Assembly (NCBI GenBank): GCA_020348445.1 | Contig: CP070751.1 | Coordinates: 2,744,750-2,808,749, forward strand | Direction of reading: 5' to 3' | From: Thermoplasmata archaeon | GTDB taxonomy: Archaea; Thermoplasmatota; Thermoplasmata; GCA-020350865 | Length of the DNA stretch: 64,000 nucleotides | In this document: in pieces, positions 712 to 12,778 of the stretch | Layout: each line of letters begins with the position of its first letter | How positions within the stretch are numbered: position 1 is the first letter of the stretch | Translations under genes and position numbers: made by a program | The notes under the pieces: generated by a model | Seen by the model: the letters and a program-made list of their open reading frames with translations, nothing else | What the model was told of the DNA's origin: nothing | The model's database searches: none

Positions 712-1197
712 CTAATATTTCCAACCTTGCTCTCTAAAGAATTCTATTAATGAAATACATTTCATATTATAATCTTTACAAACATCCGGTATTTTTGGCC
801 GAGCAGTGGGATCAGTCCTTGGGTGTTCAGATGTTATGACTGTCCATTTTCTTGTTTTTGCTAAAGCAATTAGAAATGGATCTGCTTCTGGAATAGTCTT
901 ATCAGGATCTATAAGTCTCTGGTATTTTGATGAAATAATACTGACTTCTTTAAGTTGTTCCTCATCTAAATCAATGAACATAGTTTTATGTTTCTTAGCC
1001 CATTCCAACATCTCATCATCAACTTTTTTAAGCTCATTATAAACTTCTTTTGGAGCGATTAATAATCTTTGTTTAATGAGAGCTTCAATATCTTTCCATA
1101 ATTTATTAAAAATATCTGGAGGATAAAATCTTCTCCATAAATCTATCAAGGCACATGTATCAATACAATAACCCTTGGTTAGCCTTGCTTGAATCAT
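712..1197 (-). CDS. DUF4411 family PIN-like protein
   Basis: YCIDTCALI PIN start, FYPPDIFNKLW, ADPFLIALA, VITSE, KIPDVC motifs. ATGA overlap with the upstream gene. Confidence 0.8.
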   Translation of the reverse strand: MIQARLTKGYCIDTCALIDLWRRFYPPDIFNKLWKDIEALIKQRLLIAPKEVYNELKKVDDEMLEWAKKHKTMFIDLDEEQLKEVSIISSKYQRLIDPDKTIPEADPFLIALAKTRKWTVITSEHPRTDPTARPKIPDVCKDYNMKCISLIEFFREQGWKY

Positions 1198-2393
1198 GCA
1201 TTAACCTCAAGTAACTTCTCCACCTTAGGAAGATATTTGAGATGAATATCGAGGTAATCAGCCACATCACTGCAGGTGATCCTATCATTCTTATATGATT
1301 CTAAGACTAATGTAACGAATGGAGTTCCATTTTTTTGAATGCATTCTTTAGGCGGATCTCGCCGCCCTCCCGTTTTTTTCTCTTGCTCTCTTTTTGCTTT
1401 TGTTTCCCATTCACCATGTTTTCTTTGATAATATCTTCTCGATGTTCGCTTGAATAGGAGTAACCGCCTAAGAATCACTTCTGGACTTACATTAAAATCT
1501 TTAGCAATTTTCCCAAGGGTTCTACTAGACCATTCTTGGGGGGTGTTTATTCCCCTAACAAAGTCATGATTTAATAGATCCTCTTCGGGAACCAAAAATG
1601 AACCTGAAAAATGATTACAAAATATTTCAATTGCTCTTATTTCCCCAGATGAGGTGATGCGGTTTTTGGATTCCCAATTCTCTACTCTAATTGGATCACA
1701 TATCCCTCCCTTTTTTAAAAGAAGATGTCCGAATTCGTGCCAAAGAGAAAAGGTTCGACCTGTAATACTATCTTTTGTATTTAGAATAATAACTGGAATG
1801 TCACCATCAGTTAAAGAAAAAGCTCTTAATTCTTCGATAGGCATGGACATCTGAAATACCAACACACCGAGATTTTCAATTGACATTTTCCATTGATTAA
1901 ATGCATCAGTATGGTTCTCCCAGCTGAATTGTTGATGGACTGGGATGTTAATAATTTTCCTCACCTTCTTTGCTAAACTTTCCGGATTCGCTGAGAGTGT
2001 AACATGACCGATTTTCTTCATAATGTCGCTATGAAAATCGCTTTCTAGTTCCTTAGTCAAAGAATGAAGCCGTCTCGCTCTTCTAATTGCTAGTCTAGTT
2101 TTAGGAGAAACAGGTATTTTATCTTCTCCCGGTAATGTTCGAAAATCCTTAGGAAGCGGGGGTTCTTTTGGAGGCTCTGTTAAAAAAAACACTGCAAGCG
2201 GTCTCTTGTAATAAGTAGAAAGGGTTTTTACTTGGTTCAATGTGGGTTTTTTATCTCCCGATTCCCACATTTCTACCAGATTAGTGCTGATATTAAGCCT
2301 AGAGGCGACATCATTTATAGTCCTTCCAATACTCTCCCTTGCCCATATAAGGACCTTTGGTTTAACATCAACCTCTAAAGATTTTTTTGACAT
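1194..2393 (-). CDS. XRE-family HTH fused to ImmA/IrrE metallopeptidase
   Basis: N-terminal XRE HTH (LIWARESIG.TINDVASRL....VEMWESGDKKPTLNQV), HExxH (HEFGH) and EIFCNHFSGSFLVP. Start moved from 2546 to ATG 2393, which has a GGAGGG SD. Confidence 0.9.
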   Translation of the reverse strand: MSKKSLEVDVKPKVLIWARESIGRTINDVASRLNISTNLVEMWESGDKKPTLNQVKTLSTYYKRPLAVFFLTEPPKEPPLPKDFRTLPGEDKIPVSPKTRLAIRRARRLHSLTKELESDFHSDIMKKIGHVTLSANPESLAKKVRKIINIPVHQQFSWENHTDAFNQWKMSIENLGVLVFQMSMPIEELRAFSLTDGDIPVIILNTKDSITGRTFSLWHEFGHLLLKKGGICDPIRVENWESKNRITSSGEIRAIEIFCNHFSGSFLVPEEDLLNHDFVRGINTPQEWSSRTLGKIAKDFNVSPEVILRRLLLFKRTSRRYYQRKHGEWETKAKREQEKKTGGRRDPPKECIQKNGTPFVTLVLESYKNDRITCSDVADYLDIHLKYLPKVEKLLEVNA

Positions 2394-2583
2394 AGCTATA
2401 TTCCCTCCAAATGCTGTTTCAGCTCCTATACACTCGGAATGGGCACACAGCTTTATCTTTTTATCGCTCCTCTCCTCAATTTGATATGTTTTTTCGCTAT
2501 AATCTGAATGCTCAAAAAAGCTATAAAATCGATTTTGGATTACCAAACCTCAACCTCATTTTAAGGCTTTGATGGGAGATACC

Positions 2584-6771: not shown

Positions 6772-7123
6772 AACATTCCCTCCGACTCAAATCATTAACA
6801 TCTTTGAATTTCCGATTCTCTTGGATTTCAAGAGGGTATGATAGTTCTTCTATATATAATTTCCTTGATGGTGGGTGGATGGTTTTTATAAACGGTTTTG
6901 ATTAGTTTTCAGTCGTTGAATTGGTAATTATTTCCGCATTTAGCCCCATAAAATCGACTATTTACCAATAGAAAAATATATGAGGCAATCCAACTATTCT
7001 ATATAAATTAGTTTGTACAGGAAAAGGCTGTAAATAAACGCATAAATAGTGGGCGAAATTTATTGGCATTTTCCATTCGAATGGTGGAAAAACAATGATG
7101 TCGATTCGGGGGAGAAATGGAAA

Positions 7124-10100
7124 ATGAACCAGGGCGGTGAGAGAAAGACTCTTAAAGAGTTCCTAGAGGACCTTCCCAAGGAACCATGCTTTACTCCGCT
7201 TCCTAATCAATATTGTGTTATATGTTCAGTATCCAATAAAGATGTGGCCGAAGCATGCATAAAAAGCGGGAATATCCCTTCGAAACTTAAGGCATTGAAA
7301 AAGGATCAACTCATGGAAATCGCCGAGTGCTTTGGGCAATCCACAGAGGGATCCAAATCAGAATTGATAGAAAGGGTAATAAATGTAATTGAGGGAGCCG
7401 AGGAGGAGGTTGAAGAGGTTGCCCCTTCAGAGGAGGAGGTTGTAGAGTTCGAGGTAATGGAGGAAGGAGAGGAAGAAATCGAAAGGCCCCCTCCAACAAT
7501 GGAGAAAGAGGAAAAAGAAGAAAGGATTGCTGAAAATCCTCTTATGGAGTTTCGGGAAAACCTACCTATTGATCCGTGTTTCACACCCCTTCCAAATCAA
7601 CATTGTACAATATGTTCAATTATGAATAAAGATGTGGCCTCAAGATGTATAAAGGGTGGGCAGATACCTTCTAAACTCGCGGCTATGGAAAAGAACCAGC
7701 TAGTGGATATCGCCTCCTGTCTTGGCTTATCTTGGGAGGGAACAAATGATGATTTGATTCAAAGAATTATCACTGCATCTGAGGAAGGTGAAGTTGAATT
7801 GGAAAAGGTGGCTGAAGAAGAAGTGGAAGAGCAAGTACAAGAGGAGGAGGAAGAAGAGGTTCCAATCGAAGAGGAAGTAATTGAGGAAGAGGTTGTCGAG
7901 CCTGAAGAAGGTGGGGTAGAATTTGAATTGATGGCTGAAGAAGAAGTCGAAGAGCAGGCAGAAGAGGAAGAACCCTCGGAAGAAGAACCTGAAGAAGAGG
8001 TAGTTGAGGAACCAGAAGAGGAGGTTCCAATTGAAGAGGAAGAGGTTGCTGAAGAGGTCGAAGAGGAAGGTCCAACAGAAAAAGAAGAAGAAATTGAGAA
8101 ATCCCCTCTCAGAAAATTTCTTGACGAGCCTCCCAAAGAGCCTTGTTTTTCTCCACTTCCTAACGAATACTGCATCATATGTTCAATATCAAATAAAGAT
8201 GTTGCCTCAACATGCATAAAAGGTGGCCAAATATCATCGAAACTAAAAGCACAAAAAAAGGCTCAACTCATGGAGATTGCAGAATGTCTAAATCAATCTA
8301 CCGAAGGGACGAAGCCTGAATTGATAAAAAGAATCCTTCGTGTGTCTGGGGAAGCTGAAGAGAAGGATGAGTTGGTTGAGCCTGAAGAGGAAGAAATAGA
8401 AATCGAGGAGGAGGCAGAGGAAGGCGAGGAAGAAGTCAAAGCAGGTGAAATAGAAGAAGGAGTAAAAGAATCCCCTCTCAGAGAGTTTTTGAAAAATCTT
8501 CCCAAAGAACCGTGCTTTACTCCACTTCCCAACGATTTTTGCACCATATGTACAATTTCAAATGAAGATGTGGCCTCGGCATGTATAAAGGGGGGAGATG
8601 TGTCCTCGAAGCTCAAGCCCATGAAAAAGGCCAAGCTTATCGAAATCGCAGAGTGCCTCAGCCTCTCAATTAAGGGTACAAAATCAGATTTGTTGAAAAG
8701 GATACTTGCTCAAACGATAGAAGGTGAAGCAGAGGTTCCGGAGGAGGAATCACTTCCCTCTTTGCTTGAAGAGTTCACAGATAGGATGGAAAAGGCAGCC
8801 ATCGGGCCAAAAGAAGAAAAAGAACTGACCCTCAGGGGATTTATACTCGATCTTCCAACACAACCTTGTTTCACACCGCTTCCTGACAGCTATTGTATCT
8901 TATGCTCAAGGCTCAACAAAGAGGTTGCTGATTCATGCATAAAGGGTGGGCAGCCACTGTCGAAGCTCAAGCGTATGAAGAAGATTCATCTCATTGAAAT
9001 CGCGAGTTGCCTGGGCCTTTCCACAGATAGAACGAAGATGGAATTGGTAGAAGACATCTTGGCTGCAACCGAGCAACCCGAATTAGCTATAAGAGAGGTA
9101 AAAAAGGTAGAGGAGAAAAAAAGGATCGAAGCACCACCCGTTCCAGTGGTTGAAAAGGAAGCACCGAAGGTCATGGAAGGTGAACTGGAACTTGAATGTC
9201 CAGATTGTGGAACTTCGGTTGAGATCGATGCATCAGTGTGCCCTTCTTGTGGATTTGATTTTGCACTTGCAGAAAAGGAGGAATTGCCCGAGGAGGGGTA
9301 CGAGTGTCCAGAATGCGGCAGAATTTTTACTGAACCTGTTCCCTCTTGTCCGGATTGTGGGACCGAATTTGAAGGAGTAGAAGCATTTGAAGAGGAAGCA
9401 GAGGAGGAGCTTGAAGAGTACGAGTGCCCTGATTGCGGTTCCTTAGTCACTGTAAAGGATTCAGTGTGTCCGTGGTGCGGTCTGGAATTTGACGTGGAAG
9501 CCCGGGAAGAGGAAGTTATTGAACATGAATTTGAAGAGTTCGAGGAAGTGGGGGAAGAGGAAAGAGGTCTTGAAAGTCGTGTATCTGAGATTGGGGAACC
9601 TGAAAAAGCGGTTTTTACGGCAGGTATTACCAACGGTCTTCGCGAGGGCGAGGGTGGATTGACAAATGGCATTACCAATGGATTGAAGGTGGCCAGGCCG
9701 GGTCTCACAAATGGACTTACCAATGGCTATAGAAAGGGTAAGCCTGGTCTGACCAACGGTTTGACCAATGGCCTAACAAACGGTCTTCGAGCCTTGAAAG
9801 TGGGCATTACAAATGGATTGACCAACGGTAACGGTATTACAAACGGTCTGGGTCCTAAACGCCCTGTTATCAAGGAGAAAAGCAATAAATTGAAACTCAT
9901 TGCTGTACCGATAATACTGATTATGCTGATTTTAACTCCCTATATTATAGTGGACATGGCCGAGCCAGAAGAGCGGATTGAAATCGATGGTAGTTTCGGT
10001 GATTGGAGTGGCGTGGATAAATTCTCAGAGGAAGCCGATGTACCTCCAGAAAACATAAATGTCGATATCACCTCCTTTGGAGTTGACAGCAGGCAGCAGG

Positions 10101-12778
10101 AGCTCTCCTTCTATTTGGAGGTTAAGGGGCAAATGCTTCAAGGTGAGCCTGAAGATATTGGCAGACATATGGATACTGCCTACATTTTCATCGATGTAGA
10201 CCAATCTCAAGAATCAGGCTATCTCATAGATAATATAGGTGCAGATTACATGGTTGAGGTCGCTGGGTGGAGGGGTGAAATTTACTCACAAATTTTAAAT
10301 TCATATACAGAGGAAGTTAATGATTGGAATCTTTGGGAGTTTATTGGCCGGATTTCTGCAGATGCTTCAGACTCAAGACTTGAGGTGCAGGTTGATTACA
10401 GCGAATTGGGCATGAAGAACAATGAAAAGGTTGATGTCCTGTTCTACATGCAGGGATACGATGGATCTGAGGATTTTGCAGATACCGTGATTTCCAATGA
10501 AAAGGGAGTTTTAATTGTTAACCAACAACCATTGGGTGATTCCTTTGTAACAGGTGAGAAACAGGTTATGTTGATGCTTCAGTTGACAGCAAGAAACGAG
10601 GATATTACAGTAACTGGCATTAAGATCTCCAGAAAAGGAGTTGGCTCTGATGCTGATGTGAGTGAGGTAAGGCTCATTAGTGGTTCAACTGACAAAGGTA
10701 CATTGAACAACGGCGTGTGCGAATTCCAAACCGACATAAAACTGTCAAAGGATGTTCATGAAGCCGTGTTCGTTGAGGTTGATATAGCTCCTGCTGCTCT
10801 TGATATGGGAAGCATCGGATTTAAGGTTGATTCACCCCATGATATAACAACCAATAAAGGTACCATAACACTGAAGTCAGTGGAACCGGAATCCTATCAA
10901 TATGATATCAGCTATATCAAATCAATTCCCAAGGAAATAGTGGTTGATGGTGCATTTGCTGATTGGGAGATGATAAACAAGATTAGCGATGATGCAAATG
11001 ATGTGAATAAAGAAAACTTGAATATAAAAGAGTACGGAGTATCAAATTCATCGCAGATGGCCTCATTCTATCTAAAAGTTGATGGAAAAATGTGTTATGG
11101 GGCGGCTGTGCCGTATTGGAATTACGTGGCGGCAGCTATACCGCAAGAGCCTTCAGAGCCCGGGGAACCTGGATCTCCCGGGGAAACTCCAACTCTAAAG
11201 CCAAGAACTGGCGAGGATTTCGTGTATATTTTTATAGACAGCGACAATTTATCCACAACTGGTTACAGAATCGGTGACATGGGTGCAGATCACCTCATCG
11301 AAATCATAGGAAGGTACGGTGATATAACCTCCAGAACGCATCTGAGTTTCTTAGGCCCATCACAACATAATTGGATTTGGTTAAATGAAGGAGATGTCAA
11401 GGCAGAAACAAACAGTGCATGTTTGGAGACTCAAATCTCAGTTAGTGGGTTGAATATAACAGGGAATTTTCAGGTCTACTTTCAAACCACAGATTGGAGC
11501 AAGAGCGTATCTGATTATTCGGATGGCACGGTGTCAAGGGGAACAAGGGGAATCGTCACAATTCAGGAATTTAACGCTGCATCCATTGGAGCAACTGCAA
11601 CTTCGAATCAAAGATCCCTTATCAGAACAATAGGCCAGTCCACCAATTATTTCTTTAGTTTCTATTACAATGAAGATGTTCAGAATATTACGTGGAAATG
11701 GAGTTTGACAGGTGACGACAATCCATGGCCTAATCCCCCGCAATTTGTATTTACAGAGGCTCATCAAAACATGACAAATATATCGGTTTGGTACGATGAT
11801 ACCAATCAGAAGATATATGTTGTTGCTGATAATGATAGTGCTGACTATAATGTCACTGTTCGCAAAGGAACAATTTCTGGAAACACCATCACTTGGGGAT
11901 TTGAAGTCGATGTCAACGTATCAGCCATAGGTGTGGGAAATAAAAATGCCTTCATTTCAAGGGATGCAGATGGGCACCTCTGGGTGATATCAAGCATGAT
12001 GGAAGCAGTTGGGAATTATGGAGTTGTGGCAAATAGATCGGTGAGTCAAGATGATATTACTCAATGGCAGGTCGGTGAACCCTTGACCACATCAGCTGAT
12101 GATGATCCCTCACCAATAGACGTTTATCCCATAATCCTTTCAATAGGAACTTTAGGCGATCCAGACATGTACGCAATTTGGTATGACTCATCAGGTATCA
12201 TTCAAGGAAGACGTTATGATGGATCATCTTGGAGTGGAACTACCGATTATATTGATAATACGGGTACCGATGACGTTGATGGGCAAAAGTGGGGCCCATC
12301 TGCGGTTGTAGATTCTTCAAGTAGGGATGTCCATATTATATATGTGAACGCAACAGGGAATGTAAATTACACAAAATATAATACCGGCGGGACTTATGTT
12401 GAATCCCCAAAGACTCTCCGTTACACAGAAGCTGCTTTTCCCACTATATCATTGGTTGGATCAACTGGACTGAATGTTTATTGGATTAATGAATCAGTGG
12501 GAGGTAACAACCGGATTGAAGGTAACTCTTCAAATGATCTTGGCTCTACTTGGTCCTCAATTGTCGATTTTACCCCTGATACGTTTGCCAAACGATTTCT
12601 AACCTCCGTTTATTATGCACCAAACGAATTTTTTAGTGGATGGCATTGGACACAAAATGTGAGCAATGACAATGACGTTCTTTTTGAGCGTATTCCCGAA
12701 TACCAAGATGTTCTTATCCCGTTATTCGTAACGATTTTAATGGCAGCGGTCTGGCAAAGAAAGAGGAGAAAGTGTTAA
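7124..12778 (+). CDS. Giant membrane protein: 5 Cys-rich/SAP-like repeats, 3 double zinc ribbons, TNG repeats, TM, large extracellular region, PEF-CTERM-like tail
   Basis: Long ORF (track start 7049; ATG 7124 has a GGGGAG SD). TM near 9896-9952. Two IxxDGxFxDW extracellular domains. C-terminus IPEY-hydrophobic helix-RKRRK. Confidence 0.85.
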   Translation: MNQGGERKTLKEFLEDLPKEPCFTPLPNQYCVICSVSNKDVAEACIKSGNIPSKLKALKKDQLMEIAECFGQSTEGSKSELIERVINVIEGAEEEVEEVAPSEEEVVEFEVMEEGEEEIERPPPTMEKEEKEERIAENPLMEFRENLPIDPCFTPLPNQHCTICSIMNKDVASRCIKGGQIPSKLAAMEKNQLVDIASCLGLSWEGTNDDLIQRIITASEEGEVELEKVAEEEVEEQVQEEEEEEVPIEEEVIEEEVVEPEEGGVEFELMAEEEVEEQAEEEEPSEEEPEEEVVEEPEEEVPIEEEEVAEEVEEEGPTEKEEEIEKSPLRKFLDEPPKEPCFSPLPNEYCIICSISNKDVASTCIKGGQISSKLKAQKKAQLMEIAECLNQSTEGTKPELIKRILRVSGEAEEKDELVEPEEEEIEIEEEAEEGEEEVKAGEIEEGVKESPLREFLKNLPKEPCFTPLPNDFCTICTISNEDVASACIKGGDVSSKLKPMKKAKLIEIAECLSLSIKGTKSDLLKRILAQTIEGEAEVPEEESLPSLLEEFTDRMEKAAIGPKEEKELTLRGFILDLPTQPCFTPLPDSYCILCSRLNKEVADSCIKGGQPLSKLKRMKKIHLIEIASCLGLSTDRTKMELVEDILAATEQPELAIREVKKVEEKKRIEAPPVPVVEKEAPKVMEGELELECPDCGTSVEIDASVCPSCGFDFALAEKEELPEEGYECPECGRIFTEPVPSCPDCGTEFEGVEAFEEEAEEELEEYECPDCGSLVTVKDSVCPWCGLEFDVEAREEEVIEHEFEEFEEVGEEERGLESRVSEIGEPEKAVFTAGITNGLREGEGGLTNGITNGLKVARPGLTNGLTNGYRKGKPGLTNGLTNGLTNGLRALKVGITNGLTNGNGITNGLGPKRPVIKEKSNKLKLIAVPIILIMLILTPYIIVDMAEPEERIEIDGSFGDWSGVDKFSEEADVPPENINVDITSFGVDSRQQELSFYLEVKGQMLQGEPEDIGRHMDTAYIFIDVDQSQESGYLIDNIGADYMVEVAGWRGEIYSQILNSYTEEVNDWNLWEFIGRISADASDSRLEVQVDYSELGMKNNEKVDVLFYMQGYDGSEDFADTVISNEKGVLIVNQQPLGDSFVTGEKQVMLMLQLTARNEDITVTGIKISRKGVGSDADVSEVRLISGSTDKGTLNNGVCEFQTDIKLSKDVHEAVFVEVDIAPAALDMGSIGFKVDSPHDITTNKGTITLKSVEPESYQYDISYIKSIPKEIVVDGAFADWEMINKISDDANDVNKENLNIKEYGVSNSSQMASFYLKVDGKMCYGAAVPYWNYVAAAIPQEPSEPGEPGSPGETPTLKPRTGEDFVYIFIDSDNLSTTGYRIGDMGADHLIEIIGRYGDITSRTHLSFLGPSQHNWIWLNEGDVKAETNSACLETQISVSGLNITGNFQVYFQTTDWSKSVSDYSDGTVSRGTRGIVTIQEFNAASIGATATSNQRSLIRTIGQSTNYFFSFYYNEDVQNITWKWSLTGDDNPWPNPPQFVFTEAHQNMTNISVWYDDTNQKIYVVADNDSADYNVTVRKGTISGNTITWGFEVDVNVSAIGVGNKNAFISRDADGHLWVISSMMEAVGNYGVVANRSVSQDDITQWQVGEPLTTSADDDPSPIDVYPIILSIGTLGDPDMYAIWYDSSGIIQGRRYDGSSWSGTTDYIDNTGTDDVDGQKWGPSAVVDSSSRDVHIIYVNATGNVNYTKYNTGGTYVESPKTLRYTEAAFPTISLVGSTGLNVYWINESVGGNNRIEGNSSNDLGSTWSSIVDFTPDTFAKRFLTSVYYAPNEFFSGWHWTQNVSNDNDVLFERIPEYQDVLIPLFVTILMAAVWQRKRRKC
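7151..9073 (+). repeat. Five ~80-aa PCFxPLP..CxxC..C..SKL..KK.QL.EIAxCL..S..GTK.ELI.RI repeats separated by Glu-rich linkers
   Basis: Repeat starts at about 7151, 7541, 8108, 8477 and 8831; five Cys conserved in each. Confidence 0.9.
9623..9853 (+). repeat. Eleven [IL]TNG motifs just before the TM helix
   Basis: GITNGL...GLTNGLTNGLTNGL...GITNGLTNGNGITNGLG. Confidence 0.9.

Follow-up and report, generated by a model that had tools for sequence, protein, structure and literature searches.

The window analyzed here, a stretch of 64,000 nucleotides from a Thermoplasmata archaeon, contains a gene for a giant, doubly anchored surface glycoprotein whose cytoplasmic arm carries five copies of an 86-residue unit, each composed of a helical four-cysteine (Cys4) module followed by a SAP domain. 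The best explanation of the protein as a whole, to which we assign a probability of about 0.4, is that of an anchored surface protein with Cys4-SAP beads coupling the coat to the nucleoid. The structural description itself is given with high confidence.

Translation of the region yielded one open frame, for which a comparison with the orthologue P0002 (L001) suggests that the true start is probably the ATG at 7124. The order from the N- to the C-terminus is five repeats with Glu-rich spacers, three zinc ribbons, a TNGL repeat tract, a transmembrane (TM) helix, an ectodomain and a second TM helix:

7049-12778, forward strand: open reading frame of the giant membrane protein, 1909 aa counted from the GTG at 7049
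7142-7399, forward strand: repeat 1, Cys4 module (first ~46 aa) and SAP domain, delineated by motif, alignment and profile search
7532-7789, forward strand: repeat 2, Cys4 module and SAP domain; SAP half with a net charge of -2 and GTN in place of the GTK motif
8099-8356, forward strand: repeat 3, Cys4 module and SAP domain; the copy used for the AlphaFold model (pLDDT 86.6, pTM 0.77)
8468-8725, forward strand: repeat 4, Cys4 module and SAP domain; best Pfam SAP stretch (aa 525-553), SAP half with a net charge of +6
8822-9079, forward strand: repeat 5, Cys4 module and SAP domain, closest to the membrane
7400-7531, 7790-8098 (the longest), 8357-8467 and 8726-8821, forward strand: Glu-rich spacers
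9197-9481, forward strand: three zinc ribbons (aa 717-735, 753-771 and 793-811), each CxxC-x11-CxxC, in acidic surroundings
9623-9850, forward strand: basic [IL]TNG repeat tract adjoining the membrane, kept in all family members (as VNGTG in distant ones)
9890-9952, forward strand: TM helix 1 (aa 948-968), with a K/R-rich N-flank and an acidic C-flank
9953-12700, forward strand: ectodomain of ~910 aa, with two DGxFxDW beta-rich modules, a C-terminal beta-rich part, 15 N-x-S/T sequons and 3 Cys
12701-12775, forward strand: TM helix 2 and a basic cytoplasmic tail, QRKRRKC; the same arrangement in P0032, P0033 and P0029

The PCFxPLP motif occurs five times in the protein, and the five units built on it are pairwise 51-65% identical with 28 invariant columns. 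In a whole-genome search each of them matched the profile with an E-value between 2e-47 and 4e-44, and chance is therefore excluded; the description of five ~80-residue repeats separated by Glu-rich spacers in an initial annotation of this DNA thus stands. Nucleotide identity between the repeats is 59-69%, with pS of 0.64-0.78 (saturated), pN of 0.18-0.33 and dN/dS of ~0.1-0.3. Sequence comparison shows the repeats to be old copies, every one of them under purifying selection. The saturated synonymous sites rule out that they arose by recent tandem duplication or through faulty assembly, and TRF found no long-period DNA repeat. The four spacers are 44, 103, 37 and 32 aa long with net charges of -17, -57, -18 and -7, and the cytoplasmic arm as a whole is strongly acidic (net charge -135, pI 4.3).

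The assignment of the N-terminal arm to the cytoplasm is well supported by features of the sequence. The N-terminus is placed inside because the N-flank of the first TM helix is K/R-rich and its C-flank acidic; the inner flanks of both TM helices carry K/R, and the cytoplasmic part contains 37 Cys and a single N-x-S/T sequon (vs 3 and 15, respectively, in the outer part). While the cytoplasmic location of the repeats was correctly anticipated by the initial annotation, other elements of the layout had to be revised. Instead of a single TM helix followed by ~950 external residues, the ectodomain is closed by a second, C-terminal TM helix, with only 7 residues beyond it. The supposed three double zinc ribbons are three ordinary ones, matching the Pfam Zn_ribbon_3 model (PF13248) in three stretches between aa 717 and 811 with 52.8 bits (cut-off 27, E 2.2e-14), while the DZR model falls under its Pfam cut-off. 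The middle ribbon has the form YECPECGR.F..PV..CPDCG, common to the paralogues (DUF7129-like). An Atlas feature search with the ectodomain pointed to an archaeal zinc-ribbon cluster (score 0.87), which we treat as a lead only.

The second half of each repeat is, as judged from profile and model, a genuine SAP/helix-extended-helix domain. The Pfam SAP model (PF02037) matches the protein in three stretches with 44.9 bits (cut-off 23.9, E 7.9e-12), and in the genome-wide Pfam scan one repeat passes the cut-off with 25.9 bits. The AlphaFold model of repeat 3 displays a helix, an extended loop and a helix (helices at residues 54-63 and 72-83, pLDDT about 93 there), which Foldseek superimposes on the SAP domains of MKL1 and Tho1 (2kvu, 4uzw) with an rmsd of 1.3 Å across 39 columns. 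VIA-align gave Z-scores of 6.2 to both the E1B-AP5 SAP domain and Rho-N, 5.9 to PIAS1 and 5.5 to Ku70; the scores to the structures 1zrj, 2do1, 1v66 and 1jjr lie between 5.5 and 6.2, and the LEM domains of emerin and LAP2 are among the fold matches with Z of 4.0-5.0. With the SAP domains of Ku70, PIAS1, SAF-A, Tho1, MKL1 and DEK the repeats have in common the Pfam match, the fold and the pattern L..hL...GL...G.K..LI.RI. The archaeal protein differs from these known SAP proteins in having a Cys4 module in front, five repeats, acidic linkers and a location on the cytoplasmic side of a surface protein; its nucleic-acid binding is predicted. Basic KLKxxKK and G-T-K signatures, as are typical for SAP domains that bind nucleic acids, persist in the SAP halves, of which those in repeats 1 and 2 are neutral or acidic overall. 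Overall, we put nucleic-acid binding by the arm at slightly less than an even chance.

Among the best structural matches are RNA binders (Rho-N, Z 6.2; the SAP domains of Tho1 and of Hcc-1/SARNP), and zinc ribbons are common in archaeal RNA-binding and translation-related proteins. As in Tho1, SARNP and the Rho N-terminal domain, the beads could bind RNA; transcripts or RNA associated with ribosomes would then be retained at the membrane, close to a secreted protein of very large size. We regard this RNA-directed alternative as improbable. A likeness in fold cannot tell RNA from DNA binding, no RNA-processing genes are found nearby, and the winged-helix (wHTH) and helix-hairpin-helix (HhH) heads of the relatives (see below) favor DNA.

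The first half of each repeat is a different matter. The annotation of the whole module as unrecognized does not hold for the SAP half, which is a plain SAP domain, and does hold for the Cys half, for which no convincing match was found in Pfam, in NCBIfam or among the sequences and folds of the PDB. Originally counted as Cys5, this half is properly Cys4: the fifth Cys sits in SAP helix 1 and is replaced by Ser or Ala in several orthologous copies, whereas the four others are invariant in 24 of 24 copies. The copies come from four genomes, and P12, C16, L20, C25, C28, N32 and C39 do not vary among them; the Cys spacing is C-x8-C-x2-C-x10-C, and there is no conserved His. Pfam gave no consistent match over the 24 copies and NCBIfam none, and the best hit in a PDB sequence-profile search was to a designed repeat (E 0.034). 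With a model of the 46-residue module alone (moderate, pLDDT 78, pTM 0.51), the best VIA-align Z was 2.1 and Foldseek E-values were at least 8, the small size and pLDDT of this model limiting the sensitivity. The Cys4 module is described as a compact, conserved domain of 46 aa for which these searches of Pfam, NCBIfam and the PDB gave no significant counterpart. As suggested by their conservation, the four invariant Cys would hold one Zn ion stabilizing a three-helix unit; in the AlphaFold model this unit and the SAP domain form a single confident whole (pTM 0.77). Two other identities were weighed. A ZAS anti-sigma domain (zf-HC2) was rejected for the absence of the H-x3-C-x2-C motif, which in that family lies in an N-terminal helical domain ahead of a TM helix, and of any zf-HC2 Pfam match in the protein or the 24 copies. 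An Fe-S cluster was set aside by reasoning from the spacing, which is not of the CxxCxxC type, and from the helical nature of the module.

The best Foldseek match to nearly the whole 86-residue module (a helical extension followed by SAP) is the pseudo-SAP and SAP region of DEK, a weak match with an E of 0.09, a probability of 0.98 and a TM-score of 0.47; VIA-align gave a Z of 4.7 and an rmsd of 3.0 Å over 57 residues with 28% identity. DEK also joins SAP with long acidic stretches. On the other hand, we know of no Cys4 site in DEK, the Cys4 half modeled alone has no usable match, and a Pfam search of the giant protein found no DEK C-terminal domain.

The remainder of the protein places it in a large Thermoplasmata surface family, shown by comparison with its relatives to combine an anchor common to its members, made of zinc ribbons, xNG repeats, TM helix and beta-sandwich, with variable cytoplasmic heads. 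P0032 and P0033 can be aligned to 99% of the ectodomain and have the zinc ribbons, the xNG tract, the DGxFxDW beta modules, both TM helices and the basic tail in common (BLASTP spans aa 737-1908 and 694-1907, with 29% and 26% identity, respectively). With P0032, P0033, P0029 and P0031 the homology (27-50% identity) extends over the anchor, both TM helices, the basic tail and the first beta-sandwich modules; these four carry no annotation beyond "zinc ribbon domain-containing" or "S8 family serine peptidase". The anchor cassette occurs in 138 of the 301 genomes of the class, and at least 7 paralogues are present in this genome. Elsewhere in the family the head is lacking or is of the TPR, wHTH, HhH or plain SAP type, whereas Cys4-SAP heads are confined to a single orthologue group (the window protein, L001, G002 and G039). 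SAP heads are found in P0029 (24.2 bits) and in a G029 protein (31.3 bits), which is probably a paralogue and is not syntenic; an HhH head in P0035 (34.6 bits); and wHTH heads in L123 (28.6 bits) and in P0031, which matches Z-alpha and ArsR domains in the PDB (E 5.5e-5). The presence of three unrelated DNA-binding folds on relatives with the same anchor fits DNA binding by the arm. Two further membrane proteins of this genome have a terminal SAP domain.

The wHTH heads of the paralogue L123 and of P0031, together with an order of head, TM helix and ectodomain like that of ToxR and CadC, could also be taken to indicate a membrane-bound one-component regulator, with an ectodomain sensing the surface state and a DNA-binding head controlling specific genes. 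This is very improbable in our estimate, as SAP domains are generally without sequence specificity, and a string of five or six copies with long acidic linkers, in a number that ranges from 1 to at least 6 between orthologues, does not suit a regulator acting on an operator. Furthermore, the relatives have ectodomains of enzymatic or adhesin-like type (S8 peptidase, FG-GAP), not sensor domains, and no conserved target operon was seen.

In the coat-to-nucleoid reading, which we prefer, the five beads spaced by poly-Glu linkers of 32-103 aa would provide weak, sequence-independent, multivalent nucleic-acid binding through their SAP halves, most likely to nucleoid DNA just beneath the membrane, and the acidic linkers would keep the beads separate and extended. 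The net result would be a physical coupling of the surface coat to the nucleoid periphery, a functional analogue of the eukaryotic HEH/LEM proteins of the inner nuclear membrane. This archaeal lineage is generally wall-less; by the Pfam models used, the genome contains Alba, and histone, HU and MC1 were not found. The specific role as a nucleoid-to-envelope tether is plausible, though in our estimate clearly less likely than not. It is weakened by the strongly negative net charge of the arm (-135) and by the TPR heads found at the equivalent position in the paralogues L119 and L122. Since some paralogues with the same anchor carry TPR heads or nothing but zinc ribbons, DNA binders are not the only occupants of this position.

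The same observations lend some weight to an alternative in which the beads bind proteins (cytoskeletal, secretion or glycosylation factors, or soluble acidic and basic proteins with a Cys4 head, such as P0017) and recruit cytoplasmic partners to the surface-coat protein. TPR is a protein-binding fold, such a strongly acidic arm suits a DNA binder poorly, and the Cys4 module also heads a soluble family. In addition, the structural matches include SAP-like folds that bind proteins (MANF/CDNF-BiP, SLX4-MUS81, PIAS1-p53 and emerin LEM-BAF). On the other hand, the basic KLKxxKK and GTK signatures are kept in the SAP halves, the wHTH, HhH and SAP heads of the relatives are typical DNA binders, and, as detailed below, the gene neighborhood points to no partner. 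We consider protein recruitment less likely than not, though a serious alternative. Even if the arm binds proteins, it would still reveal the way in which such archaea connect their giant surface proteins with the cytoplasm.

For the preferred coupling of coat and nucleoid, the nearest known systems are the HEH/LEM proteins (Heh1/Heh2, Lem2, Man1, LAP2 and emerin), which likewise have an N-terminal helix-extended-helix on a membrane protein, facing the DNA compartment. The HEH domains of fission-yeast Lem2 and Man1 tie chromatin to the membrane (PMC3337167). HEH/LEM proteins have one HEH, whereas the archaeal protein has five and, on the other side of the membrane, a cell-surface ectodomain. 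Searched over its full length against Pfam with E-values up to 1, the archaeal protein showed no LEM family and no MSC (Man1-Src1 C-terminal) domain, the winged helix that follows the second TM helix in the eukaryotic proteins; no homology is detectable past the small fold. The likeness is best described as an analogy, not as membership. A stronger version, of a convergent archaeal counterpart holding the nucleoid at the membrane via Zn-stabilized SAP beads in tunable number, from 1 to at least 6, with Cys4 as a new zinc-binding fold adapting SAP, is a speculative proposal, which we would not expect to hold in full.

The positioning of archaeal chromosomes relative to the envelope is, to our knowledge, largely unknown, and we are aware of no characterized archaeal membrane-to-nucleoid tether; literature searches turned up no publication that connects SAP domains to the Thermoplasmata. 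The locus offers a concrete and testable tether candidate in which the number of DNA-binding-type beads varies between close species, and which belongs to a widespread surface-protein family that exchanges its cytoplasmic heads like cassettes. Whatever its function, the 46-residue Cys4 module is small enough for NMR and metal analysis.

The gene neighborhood revealed no conserved target operon and no partner or functional clue. A divergent thermosome gene is kept in synteny in L001 and G039, that is, in close relatives only, and a downstream glycosyltransferase gene converges on that of the giant protein. In a scan of genome contigs, the neighboring thermosome gene had its best match, of 69% identity, in uncultured Thermoplasmata MAGs. 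The gene context of the paralogue P0017 is unrelated and uninformative.

The distribution of the module is restricted to this lineage, with about 16 proteins among 1.8 billion representatives and 6 of the 301 genomes of the class. A scan of genome contigs with the whole giant protein found no relative. No match to the module was found in G029, a member of the genus with an 81% complete genome, and given this lack the module may be dispensable. The Cys4 module alone forms the N-terminal part of another, soluble family of proteins (P0017 of the same genome among them), whose members combine a zinc ribbon with long disordered stretches that are acidic or rich in Lys. Within the orthologue group of the giant protein the number of Cys4-SAP copies is 1, 5 or at least 6. 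The positional orthologues of repeat 5 from four genomes form one clade (support 97/94), and this repeat is the sole copy in G039. Repeat 5 is, by the sequence phylogeny, the ancestral copy, the ancestral state being one bead beside the zinc ribbons. The upstream beads were gained separately in different lineages, giving rise to the 1, 5 and at least 6 copies seen in the present-day proteins.

The giant membrane protein is encoded by one long frame, and its structural description, laid out below, can be given with high confidence. Translation probably begins at the ATG at 7124, because the orthologue on the metagenome contig L001 starts where Met26 of the window protein stands.

Features of the giant membrane protein (nt, window positions; aa, residues)
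nt 7049-12778, + strand: open reading frame, single long frame, 1909 aa
nt 7142-7399, + strand: repeat 1, 86-aa unit
nt 7532-7789, + strand: repeat 2, 86-aa unit
nt 8099-8356, + strand: repeat 3, 86-aa unit
nt 8468-8725, + strand: repeat 4, 86-aa unit
nt 8822-9079, + strand: repeat 5, 86-aa unit
between repeats: spacers 1-4 of 44, 103, 37 and 32 aa, net charge -17, -57, -18 and -7
aa 717-735, 753-771 and 793-811: three zinc ribbons, C-terminal to the repeats
nt 9623-9850: basic [IL]TNG tract, between the zinc ribbons and the TM helix
aa 948-968: TM helix 1
after TM helix 1: ectodomain, ~910 aa
C-terminal to the ectodomain: TM helix 2 and the tail QRKRRKC

The initial annotation proposed five repeated modules, and five units are indeed present: the PCFxPLP motif occurs five times in the frame, the units share 51-65% identity with 28 invariant columns, and every unit was recovered at E 2e-47 to 4e-44 when the whole genome was searched in six frames. 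Their nucleotide identity is 59-69%, with saturated synonymous sites (pS 0.64-0.78), a pN of 0.18-0.33 and, where computable, a dN/dS of 0.09-0.27; TRF found no long-period DNA repeat. The five units are therefore old copies preserved by selection, and the synonymous saturation together with the TRF result rules out recent slippage or an assembly artefact as their source.

The same gene is carried by L001 and by two other genomes sampled from the class (G002 and G039). In L001 and G039, as in the window, it is divergent to an adjoining thermosome gene. The thermosome gene of the window reaches no more than 69% identity to named records, of which uncultured Thermoplasmata and Methanomassiliicoccales MAGs are the closest. 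L001 has six units, with the CxxC deleted in the first, G002 at least six, on two contigs, and G039 exactly one, immediately ahead of the zinc ribbons. A maximum-likelihood tree built from 18 units places the membrane-proximal units of all four genomes in one clade (97/94) and clusters the upstream units by genome (89/88 for window repeats 1-4). This grouping and the saturated synonymous sites point to an ancestral single Cys4-SAP head that was amplified separately, and long ago, in different lineages, which is what selection for valency would produce. In L001 (6421-7182) the zinc ribbons and the TNG tract lie in different frames and the gene is called as two ORFs; the shift is either genuine or an error of assembly.

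The second half of each repeat, for which a SAP/HeH pattern had been claimed, can be assigned to the recognised SAP family because of a Pfam match (PF02037) to the giant protein (44.9 bits, cut-off 23.9, E 7.9e-12, in three stretches) and a predicted fold that superposes on solved domains, both of which bear out the claim. The AlphaFold2 model of repeat 3 (from 11 aligned copies; pLDDT 86.6, pTM 0.77) has helices at 3-9, 22-31, 33-37, 45-50, 54-63 and 72-83, and its residues 38-86 superpose on SAP and HeH domains. Foldseek matched the model to MKL1 and Tho1 (rmsd 1.3 A, 39 columns), and the VIA-align Z scores were 6.2 for both the E1B-AP5 SAP domain and Rho-N, 6.0 for Hcc-1, 5.9 for PIAS1, 5.5 for Ku70 and 4.0-5.0 for the emerin and LAP2 LEM domains. 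The SAP halves retain basic KLKxxKK and GTK motifs. Among 201 sampled genomes of the class a SAP match was found in 70, above cut-off in 62.

In the first half, 24 copies from four genomes keep P12, C16, L20, C25, C28, N32 and C39 invariant and F7 and P15 nearly so (signature F-L-x2-L-P-x2-P-C-x3-L-x4-C-x2-C-x3-N-x6-C). Judged by these alignments it is a Cys4 module rather than the Cys5 module first described, because the fifth cysteine sits in SAP helix 1 and varies among orthologues, being Ser or Ala in several copies. The invariance of the four cysteines, their cytoplasmic location and a CxxC at a helix start suggest that they are putative zinc ligands. No convincing Pfam match was obtained for this half with the whole protein, and none consistent over the 24 separate copies; NCBIfam gave no match, and the best PDB sequence-profile hit was to a designed repeat (E 0.034). 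A separate 46-aa model (24 sequences, pLDDT 78) was without a fold relative, at a best VIA-align Z of 2.1 and a Foldseek E of 8 or higher, and just one structure, the pseudo-SAP plus SAP region of DEK, spanned, weakly, nearly the whole 86-aa unit (Foldseek E 0.09, TM 0.47; VIA Z 4.7). The earlier description of an unassignable domain thus stands for the Cys half and falls for the SAP half.

When 1.84 billion representative proteins were searched exhaustively with the profile, 27 matched at E 0.001 or better, and the full Cys4-SAP module was confined to two of them (P0002 and P0003). Thirteen more (P0007-P0013, P0015-P0018, P0020 and P0027) carry the Cys4 half alone at the extreme N-terminus; in the long ones the module is followed by low-complexity sequence, acidic and rich in Lys, and there is no TM helix; most of these include a single zinc ribbon together with a poly-Lys tail. 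The others match in the SAP half only, and the majority of those inspected look eukaryotic; one, P0004, has zinc ribbons and a TNG tract in common with the window protein. The Cys4 module was detected in 6 of 301 genomes sampled from the class: the source genome, three of four other species of its genus, and two genomes from two further families, one from each. The remaining species of the genus (G029, assembly scored 81% complete) gave no match. Two elements are new here: the Cys4 module, a domain family that is small and lineage-restricted, and the amplification of the Cys4-SAP composite. Literature searches gave no paper joining SAP domains with either Thermoplasmata or zinc-ribbon membrane proteins of archaea. 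One Cys4-only protein, P0017, is encoded in the source genome (G000:C1:5059283; L008/L107 10251-12647). It belongs to a small family (P0007-P0018) and is soluble (798 aa), with a single N-terminal Cys4, one zinc ribbon, a poly-Lys tail and long repeats of acidic and proline-rich sequence; its gene neighbours (NFACT, AtuA, surface proteins) are uninformative.

K/R-rich flanks of both TM helices on the predicted cytoplasmic side, 37 Cys and one N-x-S/T sequon in the N-terminal 945 aa against 3 Cys and 15 sequons in the 910-aa middle part, and the lack of an N-terminal signal sequence place the repeat arm, by prediction, inside the cell and the large domain outside as a loop anchored at both ends. 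The cytoplasmic side proposed for the repeats is thereby upheld, as is an external domain, which is ~910 rather than ~950 aa and is followed by a second, C-terminal TM helix. An identity as a ZAS anti-sigma factor was rejected.

The window protein falls within the SAP and zinc-ribbon families and within an unnamed Thermoplasmata surface-protein family; its ectodomain and anchor are not unique. The relatives P0032 and P0033 (27-29% identity, 99% coverage) lack a head (the domain N-terminal to the anchor): they start with zinc ribbons, which a VNGTG tract, a TM helix and the same ectodomain follow, and they end in a further TM helix and a basic tail. In P0029 (46.9% identity over 753 aa) a single plain SAP head is combined with an exterior of S8 peptidase plus FG-GAP. 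P0035 carries an (HhH)2 head (HHH_2, 34.6 bits), and the head of P0031 is a winged helix, with PDB matches to Z-alpha and ArsR (E 5.5e-5) and HTH_DeoR at its cut-off. The cassette of TNG tract, TM helix and first beta module was found in 138 of the 301 class genomes, and the source genome has at least seven paralogues: L119 and L122 have TPR plus zinc-ribbon heads, L120 and L124 zinc ribbons only, and L123 a wHTH with one ribbon (HTH_24, 28.6 bits). G029 has a non-syntenic SAP-headed member (31.3 bits). The [IL]TNG tract (VNGTG in distant members), with K/R interspersed, is kept in every member regardless of head or ectodomain (paralogues L119-L127), always immediately N-terminal to the TM helix. 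The middle ribbon (window 9305-9361) has a strongly conserved, DUF7129-like form (YECPECGR.F..PV..CPDCG.EF) that is present in P0004, P0029, L120 and L125 and recurs across paralogues whose heads differ; family members may share it as a docking element.

DNA-binding folds of three unrelated kinds (SAP, wHTH and HhH) thus occupy the head position. These heads, the recurrence of SAP on membrane proteins of the source genome, the basic motifs and the independently raised valency favour multivalent, non-specific nucleic-acid binding by the predicted SAP beads beneath the membrane, to which we assign a probability of roughly 0.45. On the other hand, some paralogues have TPR heads or none, the net charge of the cytoplasmic arm is -135, repeats 1 and 2 have neutral or acidic SAP halves, SAP-like folds can bind protein, and the module went unmatched in G029. 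The main rival, an arm serving as a protein scaffold, seems rather unlikely to us. The simplest outcome of nucleic-acid binding would be a nucleoid-envelope link. Lem2 and Man1 HEH domains tether chromatin to the inner nuclear membrane (PMC3337167), and the likeness, an HEH-type domain on a membrane protein, suggests by analogy a tether role that we regard as decidedly doubtful. Membership of the LEM/MSC family itself is ruled out, since there is no Pfam MSC domain and only 7 residues follow TM helix 2.

The source genome encodes three further SAP proteins, two of them membrane proteins with a C-terminal SAP (G000:C1 ~2166023, L118, and 2888472, L116): one is multipass, 1387 aa long, with an AAA+ ATPase domain, and the other has four TM helices in 266 aa and looks RDD-like by eye. 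The third (L117) is a soluble coiled-coil protein with at least two Pfam-scored SAP domains and another similar stretch by eye. Among the chromatin-protein models tried on this genome (completeness score 81.7%), Alba alone matched (PF01918, 76.6 bits), with no match to archaeal histone (PF00808), HU (PF00216) or MC1 (PF05854). The genome, a single contig of 5.16 Mb, is unusually large, since most other sampled genomes of the class have ~1-3 Mb. Two adjacent genes at window 712-2546 (- strand) have frames overlapping by 4 nt. One product is DUF4411/PIN-like (E 2.1e-41), the other combines HTH_3 with Peptidase_M78 (ImmA/IrrE-type), and the pair looks like a toxin-antitoxin or phage-defence-type module.
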